Shown in pieces: positions 2,612 to 50,031 of a stretch of 64,000 nucleotides of DNA. The notes under the pieces were generated by a model. That model was given only the letters and a program-made list of their open reading frames with translations, was not told the origin of the DNA and ran no database searches. This stretch comes from a virus: the IMG/VR virus record IMGVR_UViG_3300028864_000019, positions 32,001 to 96,000 of that record; one strand, 5' to 3'. Both the position numbers and the translations under genes were made by a program. Each line of letters starts with the position of its first letter. Position 1 is the stretch's first letter.

Positions 2612-3080
2612 ATTTCTCACCTACTTATATTTAATATTAATACATTAATTTGTTGTTATCAATATTTTCTTTGGAATATTTTTCTAAATTTATTTATAAG
2701 AGAGTTTTGATTATTCAATTTTTAAACTTCCATTTACTCTCTCATACTCCAGTTTACTCCGTTTTTCAAACATAAAAACCCTTTAAAATTTCCCTTTTAC
2801 TTAAAAATTGTTATATTAATTTATTTATCTCGTATATGTTTTAAATATTTCATTTTCTCTAATCTCGCATTTAGTTTGTAGTCTACAAAGCGATACAACG
2901 AATAATACTGTAAAACTTATTATTATTCCTAAAATTATTAACATTATTATTTCCCCCTTATTTGATTATTTTTATCTCATATAGAGTTTCATTATCTATA
3001 TCATTAACTGTATGTAGCCCTAATAACTTATCTAATACTATTAACCCTATTACTATCAATATTCCTTCTAACATCTTATC

Positions 3081-3728
3081 TTACACGCTTCCTTTCTTCC
3101 TATTTATTAATTTTACAAATTTCTCTTGTTCATTTAATTCATATTCTGCATAAGATTTTGATACTGAATTTATTAAGTGTTGCTTTTGTTGTAATGATTT
3201 ATATTTAATTTTAACAGTGATTCCTTTTATCTTAGGCAATGTATCAGTTATTCCATAAATATGATCTTCATTAACTTCAATAATATTATCTTTATGTTCA
3301 TGTGAAGGGCTTCTCATATATTCTACTTTTAATATTTCGTCCACTTCATTCAATATATCACCGTTCATTTGTAATTGTCTTTTGTGATATCCGTTTTCAT
3401 AATTCAACTGGGTTAAATGATTATCTTGATTACTTATTTTCTTTTCTTGTACTTGAAATCCACCTAGTTGTCTAACTAGCATTTCCATTGTTTTTAGTTC
3501 ATTCTTTGCCTCTCTCCGAGCTTGTCTAAGTTTTTGTAATGACTTCGCTAGTTGCCACCCTGTATATAAATCGAATTTCCCTAATCCTTCTATCTTATGT
3601 AGTAAATCTTGTTGTACATCATTAAAGACTTTTTCTTTTATCTTAAGTTTATTATAATATTCTTTAGCTTCTATGATATTTGTATTAATTTGATTAGCGT
3701 AACTTGTAGCTTTACACAATTTAATCAT
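3081..3728 (-). CDS. hypothetical coiled-coil protein
   Basis: 215-aa ORF, AAAGGA RBS, preceded by a TTGACA-17-TATACT promoter. Confidence 0.75.
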   Translation of the reverse strand: MIKLCKATSYANQINTNIIEAKEYYNKLKIKEKVFNDVQQDLLHKIEGLGKFDLYTGWQLAKSLQKLRQARREAKNELKTMEMLVRQLGGFQVQEKKISNQDNHLTQLNYENGYHKRQLQMNGDILNEVDEILKVEYMRSPSHEHKDNIIEVNEDHIYGITDTLPKIKGITVKIKYKSLQQKQHLINSVSKSYAEYELNEQEKFVKLINRKKGSV

Positions 3729-3835
3729 TTCCTTTCTTTATATATTAATTTGTTTTGTATTATATATTAAGTATAAGGTTAAATATGGAAGATGTCAATA
3801 GTATTTCTAGTATTTATATTAATTTATTTTATGTA

Positions 3836-4792
3836 TTAGTCCGTTATTTCAACTTTATAGTTAATCATAGCTATGTATAGGTGTTCAGGAATCTGATCTT
3901 TATAATCATTTGCTACTTGCTTAATTCGATTTTCCTTAAATTCTTTATAAGATTGAAATGCTTCTATTTTAGTATCAAATGTCCCAAGATATATACTTTT
4001 ATTATTCTTATCTGTGCCTTTTGCTCTAATTTTCCCATCTTTCTTATTTAAACTAACACCAATAGGAAAATCCCCTCTATAATTCTTTCTATTAATAAAC
4101 AAATTATTTATCCTTTCTGGAACAAAACAACAAGTATCAGGTGAATATATTTTATTTCCCTTAATTAGAATATCTTTATCAAGACACATTTTCTCTCCTT
4201 CTATCTCATAATAATTTTCTTTATACCAGCGTACAAAATTCTCAAAATTGTACCATTCTTCTGCTACAATACAATCTTTATATGTAGGATATTTTTCTTT
4301 ATACTTTTTACTATAACATCTAGTCATCATACTATTCCACTTATAGTATTCTTTACTTGTACTATTGTTTTCGTTTAAAACACTTACCTTATGGGCAATT
4401 CTATTAGTACAATTACTAACTTTTCCTTTTTTAAAATTGTCATATTGCGTTTTAACTCTATATCCACCTTCAAATTCAACTATAATATTTTGTGTATTAA
4501 TGTACTCTACAATAGTCATTTTAATACCATGATTGTTATATTTTACTTCTCCAGTTCTATCAATAAGACATGCCCTTTTAGAATTTTGTTTTTCATAGTC
4601 TGAATTTTTTATTAATCCTCTTTTAAAATTATTATATGTTTTATTATAAGATATGTAACCATCTTCAAACTCAATATCTACATCGTTACATCCTCGATAT
4701 TCTTTAATCCACATCCTTAGCCCTTGAGTGTTAATATTTTCTTCACCTATTCTATTTAATAATTTTTCTTTCATTATTTTTCTCCTTTTCAA
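3836..4792 (-). CDS. HNH/AP2-type free-standing homing endonuclease-like protein
   Basis: W..MMTRCY, CLDKDILIKGNKIYSPDTCCFVP, YLGTFDT..EAF; paralogue of 11186..12145. Likely start is the second Met (MKEKLL). Confidence 0.8.
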   Translation of the reverse strand: MKRRKIMKEKLLNRIGEENINTQGLRMWIKEYRGCNDVDIEFEDGYISYNKTYNNFKRGLIKNSDYEKQNSKRACLIDRTGEVKYNNHGIKMTIVEYINTQNIIVEFEGGYRVKTQYDNFKKGKVSNCTNRIAHKVSVLNENNSTSKEYYKWNSMMTRCYSKKYKEKYPTYKDCIVAEEWYNFENFVRWYKENYYEIEGEKMCLDKDILIKGNKIYSPDTCCFVPERINNLFINRKNYRGDFPIGVSLNKKDGKIRAKGTDKNNKSIYLGTFDTKIEAFQSYKEFKENRIKQVANDYKDQIPEHLYIAMINYKVEITD

Positions 4793-4877
4793 TTTACTTT
4801 TAAACTAACAAGAGAGTAATTCCAAGATTTCTCCCAGTCTTACTCTCTTATTGATACCGACTTCTAATTAATAATGA

Positions 4878-4997
4878 TTATCCACGGTCAGAAGGACCAG
4901 CCCATGCAACTAATGTAGTAACGATCATTGATGTAATTATTATAGCCATCATCATAAAGTATTTAACTCTAGCTTTTGTGTTTTTGCTTATCTTCAT
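4878..4997 (-). CDS. Secreted signalling pro-peptide (AimP/Phr-like), 39 aa, predicted mature peptide GPSDRG
   Basis: MKISKNTKARVKYFMMMAIIITSMIVTTLVAWAGPSDRG*; strong RBS GGAGGAGAGGTG; basic N-region, hydrophobic core, A-W-A signal peptidase site leaving 6 residues. Confidence 0.8.
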   Translation of the reverse strand: MKISKNTKARVKYFMMMAIIITSMIVTTLVAWAGPSDRG

Positions 4998-5090
4998 TTT
5001 TGTTCACCTCTCCTCCATATGTACTATTAGCATAAGATTTACTTATACTAAATTGTAAATATGGAAGAAATTATCTTTTGTTTATTTAAT

Positions 5091-5744
5091 TTAGCTTACT
5101 TTATTATTTCTTTTTTCTTCTTCTTTTAATAACAATACATTTTTATATAATGCAACATCTGTTTTTTTAATTTCTTTTTCAAAACATTCAAATTGATCTT
5201 GATATTGTTTATTATTGTTATGTAATAATATGTCCATTATTTGTAGGACAATATTATCATTACGCTCTAGCAAACTTATATTAAATTTTGCTGTTAATTT
5301 ATTAAAATAACCCATTGTATCATTTGGAGTGCATGTTTTAAACGCATCATAATATTCCTCATATGCTTTTATTTTCTCCTCATTGCTCAATTCATCTTTA
5401 TAACTATCTATATAATTATTAAGGGCTTTACTATACTTGTGTTTATTCTCTTTTTTATAATTAGGAATTGAATTCAATTCATCTAATAGTAATTTCGAAT
5501 GTAATTTTGCTGATTGTAAGTGTTCAGGCTTTTTGGTTAATAGTTCTGCCACAACTAATCCATTTAATAACAATCTCCTGTTTTCTATTTTTTTTAATTT
5601 GTCGTGCATTTGAAGAAATAATTTTTGTAATTCAATTATTGCTTTATCTATATCACCTTTTTTACCATTAACCCCGTCCCAAATATCATATGCCTCATCT
5701 AATTTCTTTTTAAATAGTCGTTCAATGGCATCTTCATTTATCAT
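5091..5744 (-). CDS. All-helical TPR-like protein, candidate RRNPP-type peptide receptor lacking an HTH domain
   Basis: 217-aa helical pattern with periodic Asn (LLLNGLV, KALNNYI, AKFNISL); immediately upstream of the pro-peptide gene. Confidence 0.55.
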   Translation of the reverse strand: MINEDAIERLFKKKLDEAYDIWDGVNGKKGDIDKAIIELQKLFLQMHDKLKKIENRRLLLNGLVVAELLTKKPEHLQSAKLHSKLLLDELNSIPNYKKENKHKYSKALNNYIDSYKDELSNEEKIKAYEEYYDAFKTCTPNDTMGYFNKLTAKFNISLLERNDNIVLQIMDILLHNNNKQYQDQFECFEKEIKKTDVALYKNVLLLKEEEKRNNKVS

Positions 5745-5775
5745 CTTAATGCAACCCCTTTAATCCTCATATATT

Positions 5776-6588
5776 TTACATGACTACAGATTCATCTCCT
5801 GTTTTATATATTTTATAATAATCTCTATAGTCTAATCCATTTTCTTTACAAATGTCTTCTAGTTCCATTAAAAATATTTCTCTTTCTTCTAATAAATGTT
5901 TGACTAAACTTTCAGTCTTTCTTCTTGCTATGGCTTTTTCATAAGTGTGTATGTCTTCTAATTTTTCTTCTAATCTAATTCTTATTTCTTTATTTAATTT
6001 CTCCAATGGCGTTTTCTCTTTTAAATCTCCTAATTGAATGTTTCGGGCATTATCTATGCGTTTCATGGTCAATTCGTCCACAGTACCAACATAAGTAAGC
6101 AAATCATATCTAACGTCTATAGTTGTTATTTGTTCTGTAAGAACTAGAGATTTTTCTTTTAAACCAAAATTCTCAATCTCGACGTGAACAGGAATATTAG
6201 CTTTTGACGATACTTTGCTTGTGATTGGGAATCCATTTACGATAGTTGAATATTGATTACTTAAACTATTTGAGGTTATTAAAAATGGACGTATATTACA
6301 TTGGCAACTACCATTCCTTTTCCCTAAATTAACATACCAAATTTCACATCTTTTTGCTCTTTTAATCTCTCTATATTTTGTTTCGTTATTTAATTTATTA
6401 TTACTATAACTACTCATTAGTTGATCAATTCTTTTGGTGTCCACAACTCCTCCTTTATTTGGAACATCATTTATAGCTATTTCTTTTTCTGCCAATTTAT
6501 CTCTTAATTCTTTTAATCTATTATCATTTTCTAATAAAGTTAGCATTACGACCACCTTCCGCTTAATTAATTCCTTCTTAATTTCCAA
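5776..6588 (-). CDS. PemK/MazF-family endoribonuclease with N- and C-terminal extensions
   Basis: RCEIWYVNLG..NGSCQ..IRPFLITSN...N.YS.IV..FPITSK...IPVHVEI...LKEKSLVLTEQITTID. Probable true start ATG at 6547 (RBS GAAGGTGG). Confidence 0.9.
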   Translation of the reverse strand: MEIKKELIKRKVVVMLTLLENDNRLKELRDKLAEKEIAINDVPNKGGVVDTKRIDQLMSSYSNNKLNNETKYREIKRAKRCEIWYVNLGKRNGSCQCNIRPFLITSNSLSNQYSTIVNGFPITSKVSSKANIPVHVEIENFGLKEKSLVLTEQITTIDVRYDLLTYVGTVDELTMKRIDNARNIQLGDLKEKTPLEKLNKEIRIRLEEKLEDIHTYEKAIARRKTESLVKHLLEEREIFLMELEDICKENGLDYRDYYKIYKTGDESVVM

Positions 6589-6636
6589 TTAAAATTACTT
6601 TTTTATATACTTTAATTTGTTTCATCTCATGTTTAA

Positions 6637-6856
6637 ATTTTACTGCTAATTCCATTTCTTGTCAATACCTTTTTCCAATTATTTATAATTTATTTTTAAC
6701 TTCTTTATTAATTTGTTTTGTCAATTCCTATATTCTTATATTACTACTTATTTCCAAACCTGTCAATAACCTTTTTAAATATTTTTTGTTTATACAATAA
6801 TTTGTTTAATATCTTGTCCATGAGTTAATAATACACCTACCTGAATACAATGTCAA
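6637..6856 (-). promoter_or_regulatory. Three tandem sigma-A promoters upstream of the mazF-like/receptor/peptide operon
   Basis: Minus strand: TTGACA(6856)-17-TATTAT, TTGACA(6766)-17-TAATAT, TTGACA(6665)-17-TAAAAT. Confidence 0.7.
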
Positions 6857-6933
6857 CAACTATTTAATAAATTAATGTAATAAGTTTTAGACTTTAAAAT
6901 ATAAAAGAAAGACTAGAAATTACTTCTAGTCTA

Positions 6934-8091
6934 CTACTCTATATCAACAGCGTCAAAGCCGATTGATGCACAAATATCTTTAACTGTTTGATATGAGTTT
7001 GGATCTATTACTTTAAACTCTGCTGTTTTAGCTTTAAAACTTCCTGTTTGTCGCTTGATAACATTATCTCCAGTCAAACTCTCATATCTCTTTCTCATCA
7101 TAGCGACTGATGTAGCATTAATTTTAGATTCATTGAAAATCTTAATTATAGCTTCAATATCATATGAACTAATCTTTCTCTCTTTTCTAATTTGTAATAA
7201 TAATTCAAACTCTCTAGTAAATAATAAATCGTTAAAAGAAATTCTATCTATTTTTTCTGCATCTATTACTTCTTCTTTTCGTTTTTTATTTAATAATTTA
7301 AACGCAGTAAACACTCTACTATTTACAGTATTATAATTAGCTATTTCTCTCGTATTAATTACATATGCGTCAGATTGGAATAATTGTTTTATTGATTCTT
7401 CTTCTACAATACTATCTACTTCTAATAAAAACTCTATAAATCTATCATCAATCGGCATCAATGTTATAAACTCTTCATTCTCATTATAAACACTGATAAA
7501 TTTGTTTACTACATCTATATCTTTATATCTCAATCGTCTCATATAAATCACTTCTCTACCTAAAACACCATATCGAGCTAATAATAGTGGCTTTATATTT
7601 TCTGAACCAACACACTCTTTCATTTCTCTCATTAAACTATAAAATTCATCCATATTGTATAATTTAGTTTGAAGTAGTTTTTTACTAGATTTTAGAGTCT
7701 TCATAGATTCTACTCCGGACAATGGGTTAACAGATATATCCCCTTTTTCAATATAGTATTCAAAATACTTATTAACAAACAGTTTTATAGTTCCCATTGT
7801 ACTCTCCATAGCATATATGAAGCTATTTAGCATAGATACTACTTCGTTACTCTTAAAGTCTTTTAAATCTTTATTTTTAGCAACTTCATAATCATGGATA
7901 TTGTTATTATAAACCGACCATAAAGGCTTTTTAGTTATTTCGTCCTCATAAGTATTATTTAACCACACAATCTTATCTATTTGAAATTGGTCATATTCAC
8001 CTAAGATTCTTTGCTTTTCCTTTTCTGTTGCTTCAGGTGTATCTCTTTCGTATTTTTGACCTATAAATTCTAAATTTTCTTTAAGCAACAC
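6934..8091 (-). CDS. MrpR/YopR-like phage master repressor (tyrosine-recombinase-like fold)
   Basis: Integrase-like layout (YEVAKNKDLKDF, YFEYYIEKG..SVNPL, LLLARYGVLGREV..MRRLRYKDID) without a clear HxxR/Y set; overlaps a ParB-like gene as SPbeta yopQ-yopR do. Confidence 0.65.
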   Translation of the reverse strand: MLLKENLEFIGQKYERDTPEATEKEKQRILGEYDQFQIDKIVWLNNTYEDEITKKPLWSVYNNNIHDYEVAKNKDLKDFKSNEVVSMLNSFIYAMESTMGTIKLFVNKYFEYYIEKGDISVNPLSGVESMKTLKSSKKLLQTKLYNMDEFYSLMREMKECVGSENIKPLLLARYGVLGREVIYMRRLRYKDIDVVNKFISVYNENEEFITLMPIDDRFIEFLLEVDSIVEEESIKQLFQSDAYVINTREIANYNTVNSRVFTAFKLLNKKRKEEVIDAEKIDRISFNDLLFTREFELLLQIRKERKISSYDIEAIIKIFNESKINATSVAMMRKRYESLTGDNVIKRQTGSFKAKTAEFKVIDPNSYQTVKDICASIGFDAVDIE

Positions 8092-11185: not shown

Positions 11186-12145
11186 TTAATCATCAATATC
11201 TACTTCATATCTATACATTGAATCATAAAGTTTCTTCGGTATTTTATCTTTATAATAATCTGCTACTTCTTTAATGTGTTTTTCCTTATATACTTTATAT
11301 CTTTGAAATGCTTCATTTTGATCTGAATATGAACCAAGATAAACTTTATTATTTAATAAGGTATTCCTACATGTTGATATAAACTTACCATTATCATCAT
11401 CAAAATATACCCCTATGGGATATTTTCCTCTTGCTTTATCACATTTAGTAAATAAACTATTAATTTTTTGTGGTACAAATACACATGTTTCTGGAGAGTA
11501 TATTTTATTTCCTTTACATAGAATATCCTTATCCAATGCCATAATCTCATTATTTATTTCATAATAATTCTTTTCGTACCACGTTGCAAAGTTTTGGAAA
11601 TTATGCCACGATTTATCTGCTACGCAATATTTATAAGTTGGTGTTTTTAATTTTTGGTTCTCATTGTAGCATCGGGTCAGCATGCTTTTCCATGTCATAA
11701 ATTGCTTATTATATTTTAATTTAGAATAATCAACATGATATTTACCCTCTCCTAAGTAGCCTATATTAAATACAAATTTGTGATATGGGTTTATAATAGT
11801 CCCTAGTTTAAAACTATTATAAGTTTTATGCTTTACAATAATACCATCTTCGAATTTAACATTTATATCGTTTTGATTTATATAGTTGATTATTTCCATT
11901 TTTTCATTTACTTTATTATAATTTGTTTCACCCGTTCTATCTTTAAATTTATTTAGTAATGCACATTCTGGGCATCCATGACCACATAACAAGTTTAATG
12001 GAATAGATTTCCATTCATGATTACATGACTTGTCCTTTACTAAAATTTTAGTTGTGCTATTAATATACTCTTCGATCACCTCAATATTCGGATTAATAAC
12101 AAACATTTCTTCTTTAAATTGTTCTGTAGTTTTTCTTTTCCCCAT
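11186..12145 (-). CDS. HNH/AP2-type homing endonuclease-like protein with N-terminal zinc ribbon
   Basis: CNHEW...GHGCPEC, WKSMLTRCY, LDKDILCKGNKIYSPETCVFVP, YLGSY. Confidence 0.8.
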   Translation of the reverse strand: MGKRKTTEQFKEEMFVINPNIEVIEEYINSTTKILVKDKSCNHEWKSIPLNLLCGHGCPECALLNKFKDRTGETNYNKVNEKMEIINYINQNDINVKFEDGIIVKHKTYNSFKLGTIINPYHKFVFNIGYLGEGKYHVDYSKLKYNKQFMTWKSMLTRCYNENQKLKTPTYKYCVADKSWHNFQNFATWYEKNYYEINNEIMALDKDILCKGNKIYSPETCVFVPQKINSLFTKCDKARGKYPIGVYFDDDNGKFISTCRNTLLNNKVYLGSYSDQNEAFQRYKVYKEKHIKEVADYYKDKIPKKLYDSMYRYEVDIDD

Positions 12146-31035: not shown

Positions 31036-32081
31036 ACTAAAAGAGTTCCATCTTCTAAACTACCACATGATTTTTGATGACTTAAACAACATTGACTTAT
31101 ACCACTTCTATCACAATTATAAAACTCTGAGGCTTCTCCTATACTGTTAAATTCTTTATTAGTTGTAATACATTTTACTTTCTTTTTTCTTTTTATACTT
31201 TGTAATTCAAGTGCCTTTTCTTTTGAATTCGCTTCATATATTTTTAAGTTTATATCAGCTTGTGTCATTTTTATAAAATCACTATATCTCACCCAAATAC
31301 AAGGTTTATTATTCAGCATTCCTGCATATCTTTGTTTATTATCACAACATTTTAATATTGTACCTATACTTATATTTTTTATATCTTTTTCATTATTAAT
31401 TATATCTGATGGTCTATCATATATAATTTTTGTTTCAATATTTACAATTCTTTTATCATTAATTGAACATTCCAATTCATATATTTTATCTTTTATCTTT
31501 TCAATATCTTCATTAGTTAATTTAGAATATTCTGATTCGTATATAAAATACATTTTTATACCTTTACCTTGTACTATATAAGCATTATTCATTGCCTTAT
31601 ATATACTCTTATAACTAGTATTGTAATATATTTTTGCAGTCTCTATAAGTTCAAAATGCTTATTATCTATCACATTAACTATTTGTTTTGCATTGGGATT
31701 TTTATTTCCATCAAATACTCCTTGTTTCAATTCTGACATTCTTTTTCTAGTTTCTTCATTTTGTACACCGTTATGTCCACCATCATCATTATTATAACCA
31801 TATAATCTATTATTGCTCTTATATAATACTATGTAGGATTTTTCTTTAATATCTAATTCATCTTTACTAAAAGCATAATCAATAATATCTAATTTAAAAT
31901 TATCTACTCCATATTTTTTAGCAGAATCCTTTAAATGCTTATTCTTTGAATATATCCACCATTCTCCTGCTGGATATCTCCTATTAAACTTATTTTTAGT
32001 TTGTCCAATATAAACTTTTTTATTAATTTGGTTTGTAATTCTATATATGATACCATATATTTTTAAATTACCTATTTTCAT
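31020..32081 (-). CDS. GIY-YIG homing endonuclease (NUMOD3/NUMOD1 repeats)
   Basis: GIIYRITNQINKKVYIGQT, ELDIKEKSYI, GYNNDDGG, EETRKRMS, FNSIGEASEFY. Confidence 0.92.
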   Translation of the reverse strand: MKIGNLKIYGIIYRITNQINKKVYIGQTKNKFNRRYPAGEWWIYSKNKHLKDSAKKYGVDNFKLDIIDYAFSKDELDIKEKSYIVLYKSNNRLYGYNNDDGGHNGVQNEETRKRMSELKQGVFDGNKNPNAKQIVNVIDNKHFELIETAKIYYNTSYKSIYKAMNNAYIVQGKGIKMYFIYESEYSKLTNEDIEKIKDKIYELECSINDKRIVNIETKIIYDRPSDIINNEKDIKNISIGTILKCCDNKQRYAGMLNNKPCIWVRYSDFIKMTQADINLKIYEANSKEKALELQSIKRKKKVKCITTNKEFNSIGEASEFYNCDRSGISQCCLSHQKSCGSLEDGTLLVWEYC

Positions 32082-40032: not shown

Positions 40033-40659
40033 TTAATAGCATAATACTTTTGCTATATCTTCCATATTCACATCTAATTGAGTTATTTTAAATTGAGTAT
40101 CATTTTCTGCTTCATAATCTTTATTTGTATTTTGGATTATTATAAGTCGTGGCATTGTTAGTTCTTCTTCCCCTGTTTCTTCGTTTATTGCCCTTGTTTT
40201 ATCCAATATGGCATTTATAGTATCGTTATCTTTAAATCGTTTTAAATCTATATAATCATGTCTAATTTGCATTTCTACAATTTGATAATACATGTTTCCA
40301 TCAAATTTAAAAGATACATATAGATCTGGTTTAATATTATTAAATACAGGTTCTATCTCTATTTCTTGAATATCACATCCTAAAGTTTTCAATCCACACA
40401 AATATTCTAAAACTTTTATATTATGAATAGATACTCTTTTTATTTTAGAATCATATGGTACATAAACGAGTTCGTTGGTTTCTTGATTTTTAAAAACTCT
40501 GATATATTCTCCCATTTCAGCAATCTTTTTAAGTCTCTTTCTTGCAACATCATATGCATAACGTTTTTTTGTAAAATACATATCTGCTATATTTTTTATT
40601 GTTGCGTAGCCAATAGTCTCTATAAAATCTATTATCAGTTTATCTCTTTCAACTATCAT
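40033..40659 (-). CDS. Replication-relaxation (Replic_Relax)-like protein
   Basis: ERDKLIIDFI...ARKRLKKI wHTH, H...., IKPDLYV...IVEMQ nuclease-like motif; coupled to FtsK. Confidence 0.65.
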   Translation of the reverse strand: MIVERDKLIIDFIETIGYATIKNIADMYFTKKRYAYDVARKRLKKIAEMGEYIRVFKNQETNELVYVPYDSKIKRVSIHNIKVLEYLCGLKTLGCDIQEIEIEPVFNNIKPDLYVSFKFDGNMYYQIVEMQIRHDYIDLKRFKDNDTINAILDKTRAINEETGEEELTMPRLIIIQNTNKDYEAENDTQFKITQLDVNMEDIAKVLCY

Positions 40660-42146
40660 AATTTTCTTTTCCCTTCATTAATTGATTTTTTAGTATTACT
40701 AGGTAATTTAGTCTTATCAATAATAGTCATTCCTGTATAATTATCATAAGGAACACAATTAGGTATCTTAGACATGCCTTCTTCTAGCATTTCCTTTTCT
40801 GTTTTAATACGAGTGCCTACTTCTACTAACTTTCTCTTTCCTTGTTTAACTCCATCCCTATGTTGTAATTTCTCTAAGTCATCAAACAATGTTCTGTGAT
40901 TAGGTTTAATAAAAGGTTTTATATATTCATATATTTTTTTATTATCAACTATTGGAACTAATCCGTATTCCCATGAATCCAAATGATAAACTATTTCTCT
41001 TCTCTTTAAATCTAACGCCCTTTTGCTATCATCTGTGGCTATTTCACTTGACTTCTGATTTGCCTGTCTATATGATATATTTATATTTGACATTGCTTTT
41101 ATGAAGCTAGGGATATTATCAACTGTACTTCTTTGTACACTACTATAAAGAAAGACTGAAAGTGAAGCCCCGTATTGTGCAATGGATTCGATATATCCAC
41201 TTATTTCTTCTTTAAGTTTCTTTTCATCACTACCATTACCTTTTGTTTGAAAAAGTGCCATCATTTCATCAAAAGCAATCAGTATCATAGGTTCTTTTGT
41301 AAAAACCTTCTTTAACTCATTATATTCAAAGATATTATCAACTATTGCTTTTTTCCTATAAGGTTTTATTTTTGAAATTCTATCAGGTATAATTACTTCT
41401 TTTATATATTTCAATACGTCTCTTGTTTTCTCTAAAGTATCTGCAAAAGCTTTAGTATGAATTACATCCTCATATAGGCAGAGATCATTTTTTGCCACTT
41501 GACACAAGTACAATTGTAAATCTTCTGGACTACAATTTACTATTAAATTAGTTATCGTACAATCTTCTCCTTTTGATTTTCCGCTTCTTGTAGTTCCTGA
41601 TACTAATAGATGTGGATTTTTTCTCAAATCTCCAAATATAGCATTTCCAGCAAAATCATTGCATATAAATAGCTTATAAGGACTTTTCTCTTTAATAATT
41701 TCAAATCCCTTTTTGTCATTTTGATTAAATATAAACTTAGCATTTATCCATTTACTAGCCTTTGAATGATTAAATATAATACAACAACCTAAATTCTCTT
41801 CTATCATATCTCTTTGAGAGTCTAATTTATCAAATGTTAAAGGTGGAACTATATATATCTGTCCAGATAAACCGTAGGGTGTGAATTTGATTTTATTAAG
41901 AGCATAAGTAAAATACATTTTGTTATAAAGCCCTGATAAAGTCATAATATCTAACCATGTATTTTTAAATTTATTTATAACCGAAGATTTTTTAGATTCT
42001 TTTATTTCTTCTTTTTCCATTATTGCTATACATATTTTTTTGATTTGTTGTTCTAGTCGCCCTTGGCATTCTTTTTCTTCAGTGTTATCAGGTATTGTTT
42101 TAGGTTCTTTTACTTCTTCTTTTATTTCTTGTTTTAATAATTGCAT
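40656..42146 (-). CDS. FtsK/SpoIIIE-domain ATPase
   Basis: PHLLVSGTTRSGKS (Walker A), LIAFDE (Walker B), SVQR. Confidence 0.9.
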   Translation of the reverse strand: MQLLKQEIKEEVKEPKTIPDNTEEKECQGRLEQQIKKICIAIMEKEEIKESKKSSVINKFKNTWLDIMTLSGLYNKMYFTYALNKIKFTPYGLSGQIYIVPPLTFDKLDSQRDMIEENLGCCIIFNHSKASKWINAKFIFNQNDKKGFEIIKEKSPYKLFICNDFAGNAIFGDLRKNPHLLVSGTTRSGKSKGEDCTITNLIVNCSPEDLQLYLCQVAKNDLCLYEDVIHTKAFADTLEKTRDVLKYIKEVIIPDRISKIKPYRKKAIVDNIFEYNELKKVFTKEPMILIAFDEMMALFQTKGNGSDEKKLKEEISGYIESIAQYGASLSVFLYSSVQRSTVDNIPSFIKAMSNINISYRQANQKSSEIATDDSKRALDLKRREIVYHLDSWEYGLVPIVDNKKIYEYIKPFIKPNHRTLFDDLEKLQHRDGVKQGKRKLVEVGTRIKTEKEMLEEGMSKIPNCVPYDNYTGMTIIDKTKLPSNTKKSINEGKRKL

Positions 42147-42387: not shown

Positions 42388-42590
42388 TGTCTTTAACTCC
42401 TTATTGATTTCTTATAATATATACTATTCGATAATGATTTAAATGATACCCATTTAATGAAAATAATCATTAAATAATTACAAAAATCAGTCAAAAACAT
42501 CTAAATTTACATAATTTTTAGTAGTTTTAAATGATTATTTTGATTAAAATAGATATAAACTATAATCAAAACAAATTAATATAATAACAA

Positions 42591-47303: not shown

Positions 47304-48473
47304 ATGGCATATGAACAAATATCAATGTTAATGGATAATACAAAACAATTAAATAACGTAAACTATACTTATAAATCATCGGCACTTATAGAAAGCTCTT
47401 ATGAATTAACAATTACAGAACAAAGAATAATCGCATTAGGATGTAAAAAATTACAGCCAATATATATAGAAAACAGACTAACACCGAATGATTTACAAAA
47501 AGTTTTAGGAGCAATGAAATTCAGTTTGATTGAAATATCTGTGTCGGAATACAGAGAAGAATATGGAATTGTTGGTAATAAAGTATATGATTCAATACAA
47601 AATGCTACTGATGATTTATATGAAAAAGAAATAGTATATTTTGATGATAATGGTAAACTTTGCAAAAGACGATGGATGTCATCGGTTAATTTTGATAGAA
47701 AAAATGGCAACGTACAAATAACCTTTAATATAGATCTTATTTTAGATTTATTAGTTTTTAACGGTAAATTTGTTGCTTTGTTTTTTGATATGTCGCAAGA
47801 TATAAAAAGTAAATATTCATTTCGTATGTATGAAATATTGAAAAATAGTGCTTATTTAGGAAAAATGAAAATTTCAGTCGAAGAATTTAAATTTAAGCTA
47901 AAGATAACGGATAAGTATACTGATTTTGCAGATTTAAATAAAAAGATAATAAAGCCCAATTTAGAAGTAATAAATTTATATAGTGATATATCTCTAGAAT
48001 ATAAAACAATTAGGTCTGGAAGGAATGTAAAGTGGTTATGTTTTAATATAACTAAAAAAAGAAATACTACTTTTTCAGTAGATAGCAAGTTTAAAGAAAA
48101 GATACCTTCGGCATTTAATGAAATTTCTACTGCATTAGAAAAATATAATTGTGAATTAACTTCTACTGACGCACAAACATTATTCGATACAGCTATTGAA
48201 GTGACTAAAGAGAAATATCCAGATACAAATCCTGTTAATTACATTTTAGAAAAAATCAACTATATGGATAGCTATATTACAAAAAAACCTATAGATAATA
48301 TCATTGGATTCTTAAAAAACGCAATGGAAGAAGATTATGGATTAAAATCAATTGAAGTTCAACAAAAACAAACTAAATTCAATAATTTTGAAGGAAGAGA
48401 ATATAATTTTGATAAACTTGAAGCTGGGTTATTAGGATATGAAGAAGTTGCAATAGAAGATGTAACTAAATAA
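47304..48473 (+). CDS. Rep_3 (RepB-type) plasmid replication initiator
   Basis: KSSALIESSYELTITEQRII, KSKYSFRMYEILK, ISVEEFKFKL...Y..FADLNKKIIKP...IN; FNNFEGREY tail. Confidence 0.92.
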   Translation: MAYEQISMLMDNTKQLNNVNYTYKSSALIESSYELTITEQRIIALGCKKLQPIYIENRLTPNDLQKVLGAMKFSLIEISVSEYREEYGIVGNKVYDSIQNATDDLYEKEIVYFDDNGKLCKRRWMSSVNFDRKNGNVQITFNIDLILDLLVFNGKFVALFFDMSQDIKSKYSFRMYEILKNSAYLGKMKISVEEFKFKLKITDKYTDFADLNKKIIKPNLEVINLYSDISLEYKTIRSGRNVKWLCFNITKKRNTTFSVDSKFKEKIPSAFNEISTALEKYNCELTSTDAQTLFDTAIEVTKEKYPDTNPVNYILEKINYMDSYITKKPIDNIIGFLKNAMEEDYGLKSIEVQQKQTKFNNFEGREYNFDKLEAGLLGYEEVAIEDVTK

Positions 48474-48707
48474 CCCTTACATTAAATTCATTTACTTAAA
48501 CGCCAAAATACGCCTCAAATTTAAGACTTGTCCTATCAAAGGTAATAGTTGTTGTCTAAAATTAGAACGTCTTAGAGAGTCGAATAAGGGTAAATAAATC
48601 CTATATATAGATATATGAGAATGTAGTAGAAATTATTACATTCTTTTTTTATGTTTTGAATTAAATTGATAATTATATTATTTTAAAACAAATTAATGTA
48701 TAAATGA

Positions 48708-49739: not shown

Positions 49740-50031
49740 TCTGGGCGACTTCCAAGGCGAACAGGAGAGTCTTACTAATTCTTATTATATATTTATTAGT
49801 TCTTATTACACCTCCATTGTAGTCTTGTCATAAGACTGTTACATTAAGGGTAAGCTTGAACTAATAGTCTTGTAATGAGACTAGAATTGAATTCGGCTTG
49901 AGAAGTGTGATTAAATGGTGAATAAAACAAATTAATATATAAAGTGTTGACAAATTAATAGAATTATGGTAAGATAATACTTGTAAGGAGGAAATAAGAA
50001 ATTTAGTAATTCAACACATTTAAATAAATTA

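Follow-up and report, generated by a model that had tools for sequence, protein, structure and literature searches.

Introduction

To our knowledge, the only established cases of peptide communication among phages come from Bacilli; they comprise the arbitrium system and a small number of Rap-Phr systems carried by phages. Arbitrium is encoded by SPbeta/phi3T Bacillus phages and relies on a receptor, AimR, with a helix-turn-helix (HTH) and a tetratricopeptide repeat (TPR) part (about 386 amino acids), and on a hexapeptide signal containing Arg-Gly. Its action through the MazF RNase of the host is a recent finding: in phi3T, the host enzyme is switched off by AimX and YosL, and at high AimP levels it remains active and can promote lysogeny (PMC10769878). 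The present analysis deals with a 64,000-nucleotide stretch of viral DNA (positions 32,001 to 96,000 of IMG/VR virus record IMGVR_UViG_3300028864_000019), denoted as the window, and with a three-gene cassette on it that encodes a long MazF/PemK-family endoribonuclease (MazF-long), a 217-amino-acid TPR-only protein, and a short, putatively exported pre-peptide. The complete record comprises 111,869 bp, with a completeness of ~54% (CheckV).

The cassette is located on the minus strand, where a YopQ-like gene, an MrpR-like gene, a terminator, promoters, the MazF gene, the TPR gene, a small open reading frame (ORF), and a hairpin follow each other (Table 1). An earlier reading of the letters of the window (the original prediction) had singled it out as a candidate arbitrium-like system. 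The elements named there, a 39-codon ORF with a strong ribosome-binding site, its signal peptide ending in A-W-A followed by GPSDRG, its position after the 217-amino-acid gene, and the gap of 31 nucleotides between the MazF and the TPR gene, were all found in place, and the premise that SPbeta-group arbitrium acts through the host MazF holds for phi3T (PMC10769878). The unit is interpreted here as a peptide-gated phage MazF, i.e. a signalling-and-toxin cassette of three genes, and this interpretation is given an even chance of being correct.

Conservation of the cassette and its pre-peptide gene

Seven further loci were compared with the window. L002, L003, and L004 were obtained with a MazF profile, L085, L086, and L087 with a TPR sub-alignment, and L088 from a metagenome; six of them reside on viral contigs of 115-229 kb and one on a metagenome contig of 28.6 kb. 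The same order of MrpR-like gene, intergenic promoter array, MazF-long, TPR gene, and small ORF is present in all eight loci, whose TPR proteins share 25-60% identity. Both the mazF-receptor-peptide synteny that the original prediction had proposed as a check and the conservation of a peptide ORF beside the receptor homologues, without which it was to fall, are thus borne out in every locus with flanks, the peptide ends being diversified. Locus searches with the TPR alignments A1/A3 in viral, metagenome, and genome collections yielded no new locus (one re-found L002), as did those with alignments A9, A10, and A12; with alignment A6, none was found in species-representative genomes.

The pre-peptide shows a basic N-region, a hydrophobic core of ~20 residues, and the A-W-A motif, after which only GPSDRG remains. 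Its ribosome-binding site, GGAGGAGAGGTGA, is situated 6 nucleotides upstream of the ATG. The peptide ORF, which precedes the operon hairpin, is separated from the TPR gene by 93 nucleotides in the window and by 37-96 nucleotides in the five loci measured. Searches of Pfam and PHROG gave no match for the ORF. An assignment of its product as a lipoprotein was rejected, since it has no Cys.

A small-ORF filter was applied to all fetched loci (864 kb, 1.7 Mb for both strands). To pass, an ORF had to start with ATG behind a Shine-Dalgarno motif, to show at least two basic residues early on and a hydrophobic stretch of 13 residues, and to have a (-3,-1) cleavage site and a polar end 5-8 residues long. 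Apart from SPbeta yopL, which encodes the true AimP, only syntenic ORFs passed, namely those of seven of the eight loci; this ORF type is therefore specific to the cassette position, and a genuine arbitrium pre-peptide is captured by the filter as well. The (-3,-1) sites and ends read AWA-GPSDRG in the window, AFA-TTGSGRG in L002, VFS-SGNGWG in L003, ILS-SGGGWG in L004, VLA-TTGSKG in L085, AMA-GTSTRG in L086, ASA-GSIGRG in L087, and AWA-TGSPRG in L088, so that five of the eight loci share the A-x-A cleavage site ahead of a six-residue end originally described for the window. With the pre-peptides added by a profile search that started from these eight, 25 sequences are available, in which the last six residues take 11 different forms, all closing in [R/K/W]-G. 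Signal and end vary in different ways: the window and P0088 differ at 8 of 22 signal positions and 0 of 6 end positions, L086 and P0097 at 6/22 and 0/6, and L087 and P0097 at 5/22 and 3/6. Judged from these sequences, the peptide ends behave like pherotypes: they are fully retained or else altered at several positions at a time. On the receptor side, every TPR protein that goes with an [R/K]-G end has acidic residues at positions 23 and 171, where the two that go with W-G ends have Ser/Gly and Arg/Lys, a lead to specificity that is weak and confounded by phylogeny because there are only two W-G members.

Short ORFs are common in AT-rich DNA, and the small ORF might be untranslated, with an RNA or DNA feature (a leader or a piece of the terminator) as the conserved entity and a MazF-TPR pair that needs no peptide. 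This explanation is highly improbable. The nucleotide and amino-acid sequences have strongly diverged, whereas the features retained are those of a protein: a strong, properly spaced ribosome-binding site of the AGGAGGTGA type, the basic N-region, the hydrophobic core, the (-3,-1) site, and a polar tail that spans 6-7 residues and closes in [R/K/W]-G. In addition, the filter produced no false positives in 1.7 Mb besides the true AimP.

The TPR-only protein

The 217-amino-acid protein is predicted by AlphaFold2 (AF2) as 11 paired helices, with a predicted local distance difference test (pLDDT) value of 91.4. TPR proteins came out on top of an exhaustive structural search (Z 12-14); PlcR with PapR (2qfc) was found at rank 3 (Z 13.1), and Rap of phage phi105 with its peptide (8rte) at rank 19 (Z 11.5). 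The TPR fold without which the original prediction would have failed is accordingly present in the model. Structural neighbours in the Atlas are TPR families, a feature search there yielded unnamed clusters only, and Foldseek against the PDB and a viral structure library gave weak, generic helical-repeat matches. By sequence, the protein has no match in Pfam (including the TPR and Rap families), PHROG, or the PDB.

A profile search of 1.8 billion representatives yielded a family of 64 members, none of which exceeds 229 amino acids and none of which is fused to an HTH domain, in agreement with the HTH-less receptor that had been proposed. The TPR proteins of the window, L003, and L087 have no match among GenBank phages, and that of L087 has none among plasmids. 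None of the TPR and MazF family members looked up lists NCBI as source, whereas two of the pre-peptide ORFs do.

The toxin and its predicted docking to the TPR protein

The mechanically called MazF ORF spans 5776-6588 and opens with a TTG at 6588; the likely start is the ATG behind GGAAGGTGG, which gives the 256-amino-acid form that is also the form in the protein database. The protein matches Pfam PF02452 (E 9e-20, 71 bits versus a cut-off of 23), and its family profile finds Bacillus MoxT/EndoA/YdcE in the PDB (E 1e-41 to 7e-43). Superposition of the model on YdcE (1ne8) results in a target-normalised template modelling (TM) score of 0.89 and a root-mean-square deviation of 1.7 Å. R86 and T109, which we take to be the counterparts of the catalytic Arg25 and Thr48 of B. 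subtilis MazF, are invariant in 19 family sequences. Going by its sequence, the EndoA-type RNase core is intact. In the AF2 model (pLDDT 75), residues 22-58 form a disordered linker behind an N-terminal helix of low confidence, residues 65-172 the core, and residues 186-249 a C-terminal helical hairpin predicted with confidence (pLDDT about 90).

The toxin had been described as lacking a MazE-like partner, and the ORF list indeed contains no MazE-like ORF between the promoters and MazF; within the 112 kb record, PemK matches the cassette MazF alone. A fused MazE in the first 60 residues of MazF-long was considered and rejected, as this part is variable, of low complexity, and predicted to be disordered.

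Binding between receptor and MazF, which the original prediction had suggested modelling, is supported by a controlled structure prediction. The complex reached ipSAE values of 0.70, 0.68, and 0.70, against 0.07 for the best control; the ipSAE mark is reached by 58 of 80 solved complexes and by 2 of 110 mismatched pairs, reference counts that hold only roughly because own alignments were used. The partner pLDDT is 87, and the runs agree in at least 86% of the contacts. Since no solved relative of the TPR protein exists by sequence, the predictor is unlikely to have reproduced a known structure. In the predicted interface, residues 209-231 of MazF, which form the second helix of the C-terminal hairpin, lie in the concave TPR groove, where they are contacted by residues 19-32, 58-69, 100-106, and 142-148. 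The contacts include several TPR positions that rank among the most conserved (Y/F19, W/F22, L58, and the Asn at 61/62), and D23 of the TPR protein is predicted to touch R209 and K210 of MazF.

The divergence of the two proteins fits this model. Pairwise identities among the seven loci with an intact MazF revealed that the C-terminal extension of MazF follows the TPR protein closely (r 0.90, Mantel p 0.0008), whereas for the PemK core no such relation is seen (r -0.08). This pattern is illustrated by L004 and L088, with cores that are 80% identical, extensions that share 26%, and TPR proteins that share 32%. The co-inherited unit hence comprises the extension, the TPR protein, and the peptide gene, with PemK cores swapped beneath them. 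Such co-divergence, as far as the sequences tell, is what an adaptor-receptor pair would show.

The promoter array and its repeated element

Transcription of the cassette was originally attributed to three tandem sigma-A promoters. All three are present (Table 1), matching 11, 10, and 11 of 12 consensus positions in the order 6856, 6766, and 6665. Promoter-like sites overall are no more frequent than in shuffles; the tandem array of two or three promoter units is kept in all eight loci, as is the terminator.

Each promoter is followed by a AAACAAATTA element (6798-6807, 6709-6718, and 6613-6622), and in all eight loci a AAACAAATTAA-like element occurs 15-25 nucleotides downstream of the -10 box in each promoter unit. 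The 10-mer core AAACAAATTA occurs 20 times in the window versus 2.4 expected, mostly in intergenic positions beside promoters. Across the window it is often lengthened to AAAACAAATTAATRTATAAA beside sigma-A-type promoters; besides the three cassette sites, its occurrences include 3746-3755, 42569-42578, 48686-48695, and 49925-49934. Early promoters of SPbeta, the aimR promoter among them, contain a repeated element (SPBRE) to which MrpR binds (PMC10516654). The element of the window may be the counterpart of SPBRE and the operator of the MrpR-like repressor; if the cassette behaves as SPbeta does, it would probably be repressed in the lysogen and strongly fired early in infection or induction.

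Proposed mechanism and competing explanations

Transcription would be driven by the strong promoters that stand in tandem immediately behind the YopQ/MrpR-like lysogeny genes. The TPR-only protein is predicted to dock the C-terminal hairpin of MazF in its concave groove and would in this way hold or regulate the RNase. The pre-peptide, to judge from its sequence, would be exported by the Sec system and cut by signal peptidase after A-x-A, which would release the hexapeptide GPSDRG. Its build-up would track the density of infected or lysogenic cells; upon re-entry by an oligopeptide permease, the peptide would bind the TPR protein, as in RRNPP receptors, and alter its hold on MazF. The receptor may stand in for AimX, with the phage supplying its own MazF. 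By analogy with phi3T, the likeliest polarity is that the apo-TPR protein restrains MazF and the peptide-bound form frees it, and the output would be a bias between lysis and lysogeny or abortive infection. The complete version of this model, in which the TPR-only receptor acts as keeper of the toxin via a dedicated C-terminal adaptor hairpin, the hexapeptide displaces or re-sets this hold, and RNase activity follows phage or lysogen density, is put forward tentatively, with slightly less than an even chance.

Several points weigh against this mechanism. The co-divergence could stem from physical linkage alone, since the extension is encoded right beside the TPR gene and recombination has its breakpoint where core and extension meet. 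As the predicted contact is made by the extension, away from the RNase active site, inhibition does not follow from it. Generic or unrelated TPR proteins score as high as PlcR or Rap in the structural search; the fold is consequently TPR-like, and the protein may or may not be specifically akin to RRNPP receptors. Comparison of the family profile A8 with SPbeta AimR by hhalign gave a probability of 0.45%. One pre-peptide variant, P0102, has a Lys at -1, directly before the predicted end, which is unfit for a signal-peptidase site. Flanks are at hand for eight loci only, all of them metagenome-derived assemblies. Finally, two loci, L016 and L085, depart from the pattern of three intact genes.

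In L016 (5926-7234), a phage MazF of 226 amino acids with a related C-terminal extension is followed, 20 nucleotides on, by a gene for a 202-amino-acid protein and then by a tyrosine recombinase gene. The 202-amino-acid protein, when compared with the TPR family, proved unrelated, and a peptide ORF is missing from the locus. Pairs of a long MazF and a partner thus seem to form a wider class. A two-gene form thus exists, as would be expected if MazF-long and the TPR protein were a toxin-regulator pair and the product of the small ORF were not its ligand; this product would then be a separate exported or membrane peptide, with a role in e.g. superinfection exclusion or envelope modulation, that merely has the operon in common. 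The docking model and the co-divergence explain such a pair without a peptide. This explanation is nevertheless unlikely, as the peptide ORF accompanies the TPR gene in all eight loci, few roles besides that of a signal are conceivable for a six-residue exported product, and the ends are strictly kept or multiply changed, as in pherotypes. Furthermore, a TPR groove protein beside a short exported pre-peptide is the defining layout of RRNPP systems (PMC10075063).

In L085, a viral contig of 229 kb, the MazF gene is split into frames of 91 and 170 amino acids by a frameshift within an A8 run (3374-3381), with the TPR and peptide genes intact. The break may represent an assembly error, slippage, or real decay, or the TPR protein and the peptide may be able to work without MazF. 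The latter would agree with an explanation in which these two form a Rap/Phr-like quorum system with a host or other phage target, MazF is neighbouring cargo, and the docking is a false positive. Such a system would resemble Rap-type receptors, which work through protein-protein binding and have no DNA-binding domain; phi105 Rap is among the fold matches, and the exchange of PemK cores between loci points in the same direction. It is considered quite improbable, though, given a complex score far above the controls, the co-divergence of the MazF extension rather than the core with the TPR protein, and the position of MazF-long immediately before the TPR gene in all eight loci. Besides, the 217-amino-acid protein is devoid of the N-terminal three-helix bundle of Rap proteins, and the break in L085 falls into a homopolymer run, where it is possibly an assembly error.

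Genome setting and neighbouring genes

The cassette lies next to the YopQ/MrpR-like genes, as originally described. The 478-amino-acid protein matches, by tblastn against GenBank phages, only SPbeta-group Bacillus phages at yopQ (E 2e-11), and also matches phrog_5732. For the 385-amino-acid protein, a match to Pfam MrpR_N_CB (E 6e-5, below the curated cut-off) and to the phrog_5830 integrase family (E 6e-10) was obtained; the MrpR-like gene precedes the module in all eight loci. A hairpin equivalent to the terminator of the yopQ/mrpR-like unit opens the intergenic region in the other loci. As DNA, the cassette region has no match among GenBank phages.

Table 1. Coordinates of the cassette, its parts, and its borders in the window
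Feature	Position	Strand	Remark
YopQ-like gene, 478 amino acids	8081..9517	-	upstream border of lysogeny-control region
MrpR/YopR-like gene, 385 amino acids	6934..8091	-	integrase-fold repressor family
Terminator-like hairpin with T-run	6910..6932	-	closes the yopQ/mrpR-like unit
Three tandem sigma-A-type promoter units	6637..6856	-	TTGACA-17-TAnnnT, at 6856, 6766, 6665
Long MazF/PemK-family endoribonuclease gene, 256 amino acids	5776..6546	-	from ATG at 6546
PemK core of MazF	about 6031-6354	-	
C-terminal helical hairpin of MazF	about 5800-6015	-	
TPR-only protein, 217 amino acids	5091..5744	-	candidate peptide receptor and MazF-docking partner
Small hairpin	5029..5049	-	spacer between TPR gene and peptide ORF; dG -9.8 kcal/mol, z -4.3
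Ribosome-binding site of pre-peptide gene	5004-5016	-	
Pre-peptide gene, 39 codons and stop	4878..4997	-	
Signal peptide	4899-4997	-	ends in A-W-A
Predicted mature hexapeptide GPSDRG	4881-4898	-	
Strong terminator-like hairpin	4811..4848	-	operon end; dG -21.5 kcal/mol, z -4.6

The three other loci that were folded, L002, L004, and L087, have hairpins equivalent to that at the operon end, again 3' of their peptide ORFs, and an inverted repeat with a T-run is visible by eye after the peptide ORF of L003. The small spacer hairpin is kept in L002 (about 7435-7455), with base changes that by eye preserve pairing, and is absent where spacers are short.

Downstream of the hairpin that follows the peptide ORF, the window and L002 have a homing-endonuclease-like gene, the remaining loci other genes; no conserved small output gene of the aimX type was seen downstream of the module in the loci examined. 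The genes in question, HNH-endonuclease-like (3836-4792 on the minus strand of the window, 7701-8663 in L002; phrog_953, E 2e-64), separate the peptide ORF from the next conserved gene in these two loci only and look like homing-endonuclease insertions. The window contains a further gene similar to its HNH-like gene at 11186-12145 (minus strand), the C-terminal part being alike by eye. A short distance downstream of the module, five loci share an ORF of 38-42 amino acids with one hydrophobic helix and the C-terminus ..E(L/I)KIIK, which may encode an unannotated small membrane protein (window 2958-3074 on the minus strand, L004 8233-8352, L086 4917-5045, L087 5004-5123, and L088 4941-5060).

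Outside the cassette region, the window encodes a homologue of the YonO-type single-subunit RNA polymerase (942 amino acids, 54699-57527 on the plus strand). Among GenBank phages, Clostridium phage D-1873 gives the best match (35% identity over 98%) and SPbeta-group phages come next, which places the element in an SPbeta-like lineage. The match to D-1873 is the sole pointer to, and a hint of, a clostridial host. A Rep3-type replication initiator (47304-48473, plus strand) and an FtsK/SpoIIIE-family protein (40656-42146, minus strand) are hints of a plasmid-like or phage-plasmid lifestyle.

Implications

If the proposed mechanism is true, a different and much smaller family of TPR receptors has been recruited for phage signalling, and the phage itself provides the MazF step and couples it to the receptor with no transcription factor between them. 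Toxin-antitoxin logic and quorum sensing would be fused in one unit of three genes, representing a protein-level counterpart of arbitrium in large SPbeta-like phages. Current detection pipelines would miss the cassette, because its receptor is shorter than 250 amino acids and has no match to a TPR hidden Markov model; RRNPP_detector, for instance, uses a receptor window of 250-500 amino acids (PMC10075063). Similar systems may therefore be widely overlooked. The cassette is small enough for direct reconstruction and testing with three genes, a synthetic peptide of six residues, and an RNase read-out.

Comparison with known systems

The description of the cassette as arbitrium-like stands with respect to its logic and fails with respect to descent, since no AimR homology is detectable by hhalign. 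As in arbitrium, the module is phage-encoded in the same lysogeny-control neighbourhood, the pre-peptide gene directly follows a TPR-type gene, and the putative signal is a hexapeptide containing Arg-Gly. Arbitrium converges on a MazF RNase (PMC10769878), as the proposed pathway of the cassette would, and both receptor promoter regions carry a repeated element of the kind bound by SPbeta MrpR (PMC10516654). The two differ in position and parts. The order in SPbeta is aimR-aimP-yopM..yopQ-yopR, which places arbitrium upstream of yopQ/yopR, whereas the cassette is situated downstream of these genes. Its TPR protein has 217 amino acids, with neither an HTH nor any other nucleic-acid-binding domain, no equivalent of aimX was identified, and its MazF is phage-encoded, equipped with a docking extension, and predicted to be bound directly by the receptor. 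AimP needs further processing, whereas the peptide of the cassette would apparently be freed by signal peptidase alone. The pre-peptides have the same layout and are found by the same filter; the cassette ends close in [R/K/W]-G instead of the RGA or GG-type ends of AimP, and they are too short for homology to be judged. A search of the virus record for SPbeta AimR found none, an empty answer that carries no weight for a record that is ~54% complete.

With Rap-Phr systems of the RRNPP family, including phi105 Rap (8rte), the cassette has in common a TPR receptor that contains no DNA-binding domain and would bind and inhibit a partner protein, a short imported peptide that would release this partner, and a Sec-exported pre-peptide encoded just downstream. 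The TPR protein of the cassette is about half the size of a Rap protein and has no N-terminal helical bundle. No sequence similarity connects the two (no Pfam TPR or Rap match), and the proposed partner is a toxin RNase in place of a response regulator. RRNPP systems in general share with the cassette a TPR-type solenoid and an adjacent exported pre-peptide gene, which has a 6-7 residue end in all eight loci, whereas the receptor, at 217 amino acids (at most 229 among the 64 family representatives), falls below the 250-500 amino acid window and has no effector part.

Type II MazEF/PemIK modules, such as EndoA-EndoAI of B. subtilis, resemble the cassette in that an EndoA-related PemK/MazF core is encoded in one operon with a cognate binding protein, a predicted one in the cassette. 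In the cassette, however, there is no MazE-type antitoxin, which would have a DNA-binding N-domain and a disordered C-tail and is usually encoded upstream; the partner is encoded downstream, adopts a TPR fold, and has no DNA-binding domain, the predicted contact is made with the added C-terminal hairpin and not with the RNA groove, and the third gene is that of a putatively exported peptide. A short extracellular peptide has also been proposed to tune MazF with cell density in E. coli, the extracellular death factor (EDF, NNWNN), although the reports are debated. EDF reportedly binds MazF directly and derives from a housekeeping protein, whereas the cassette has a dedicated pre-peptide gene and a TPR protein as intermediary.

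No account of such a module came up in the paper library searched for MazF together with TPR proteins, quorum sensing, and prophages, and for SPbeta-like phages together with Clostridium and arbitrium. By the tests run, the cassette is a system that would work like arbitrium or Rap-Phr in its proposed logic and is a member of neither.

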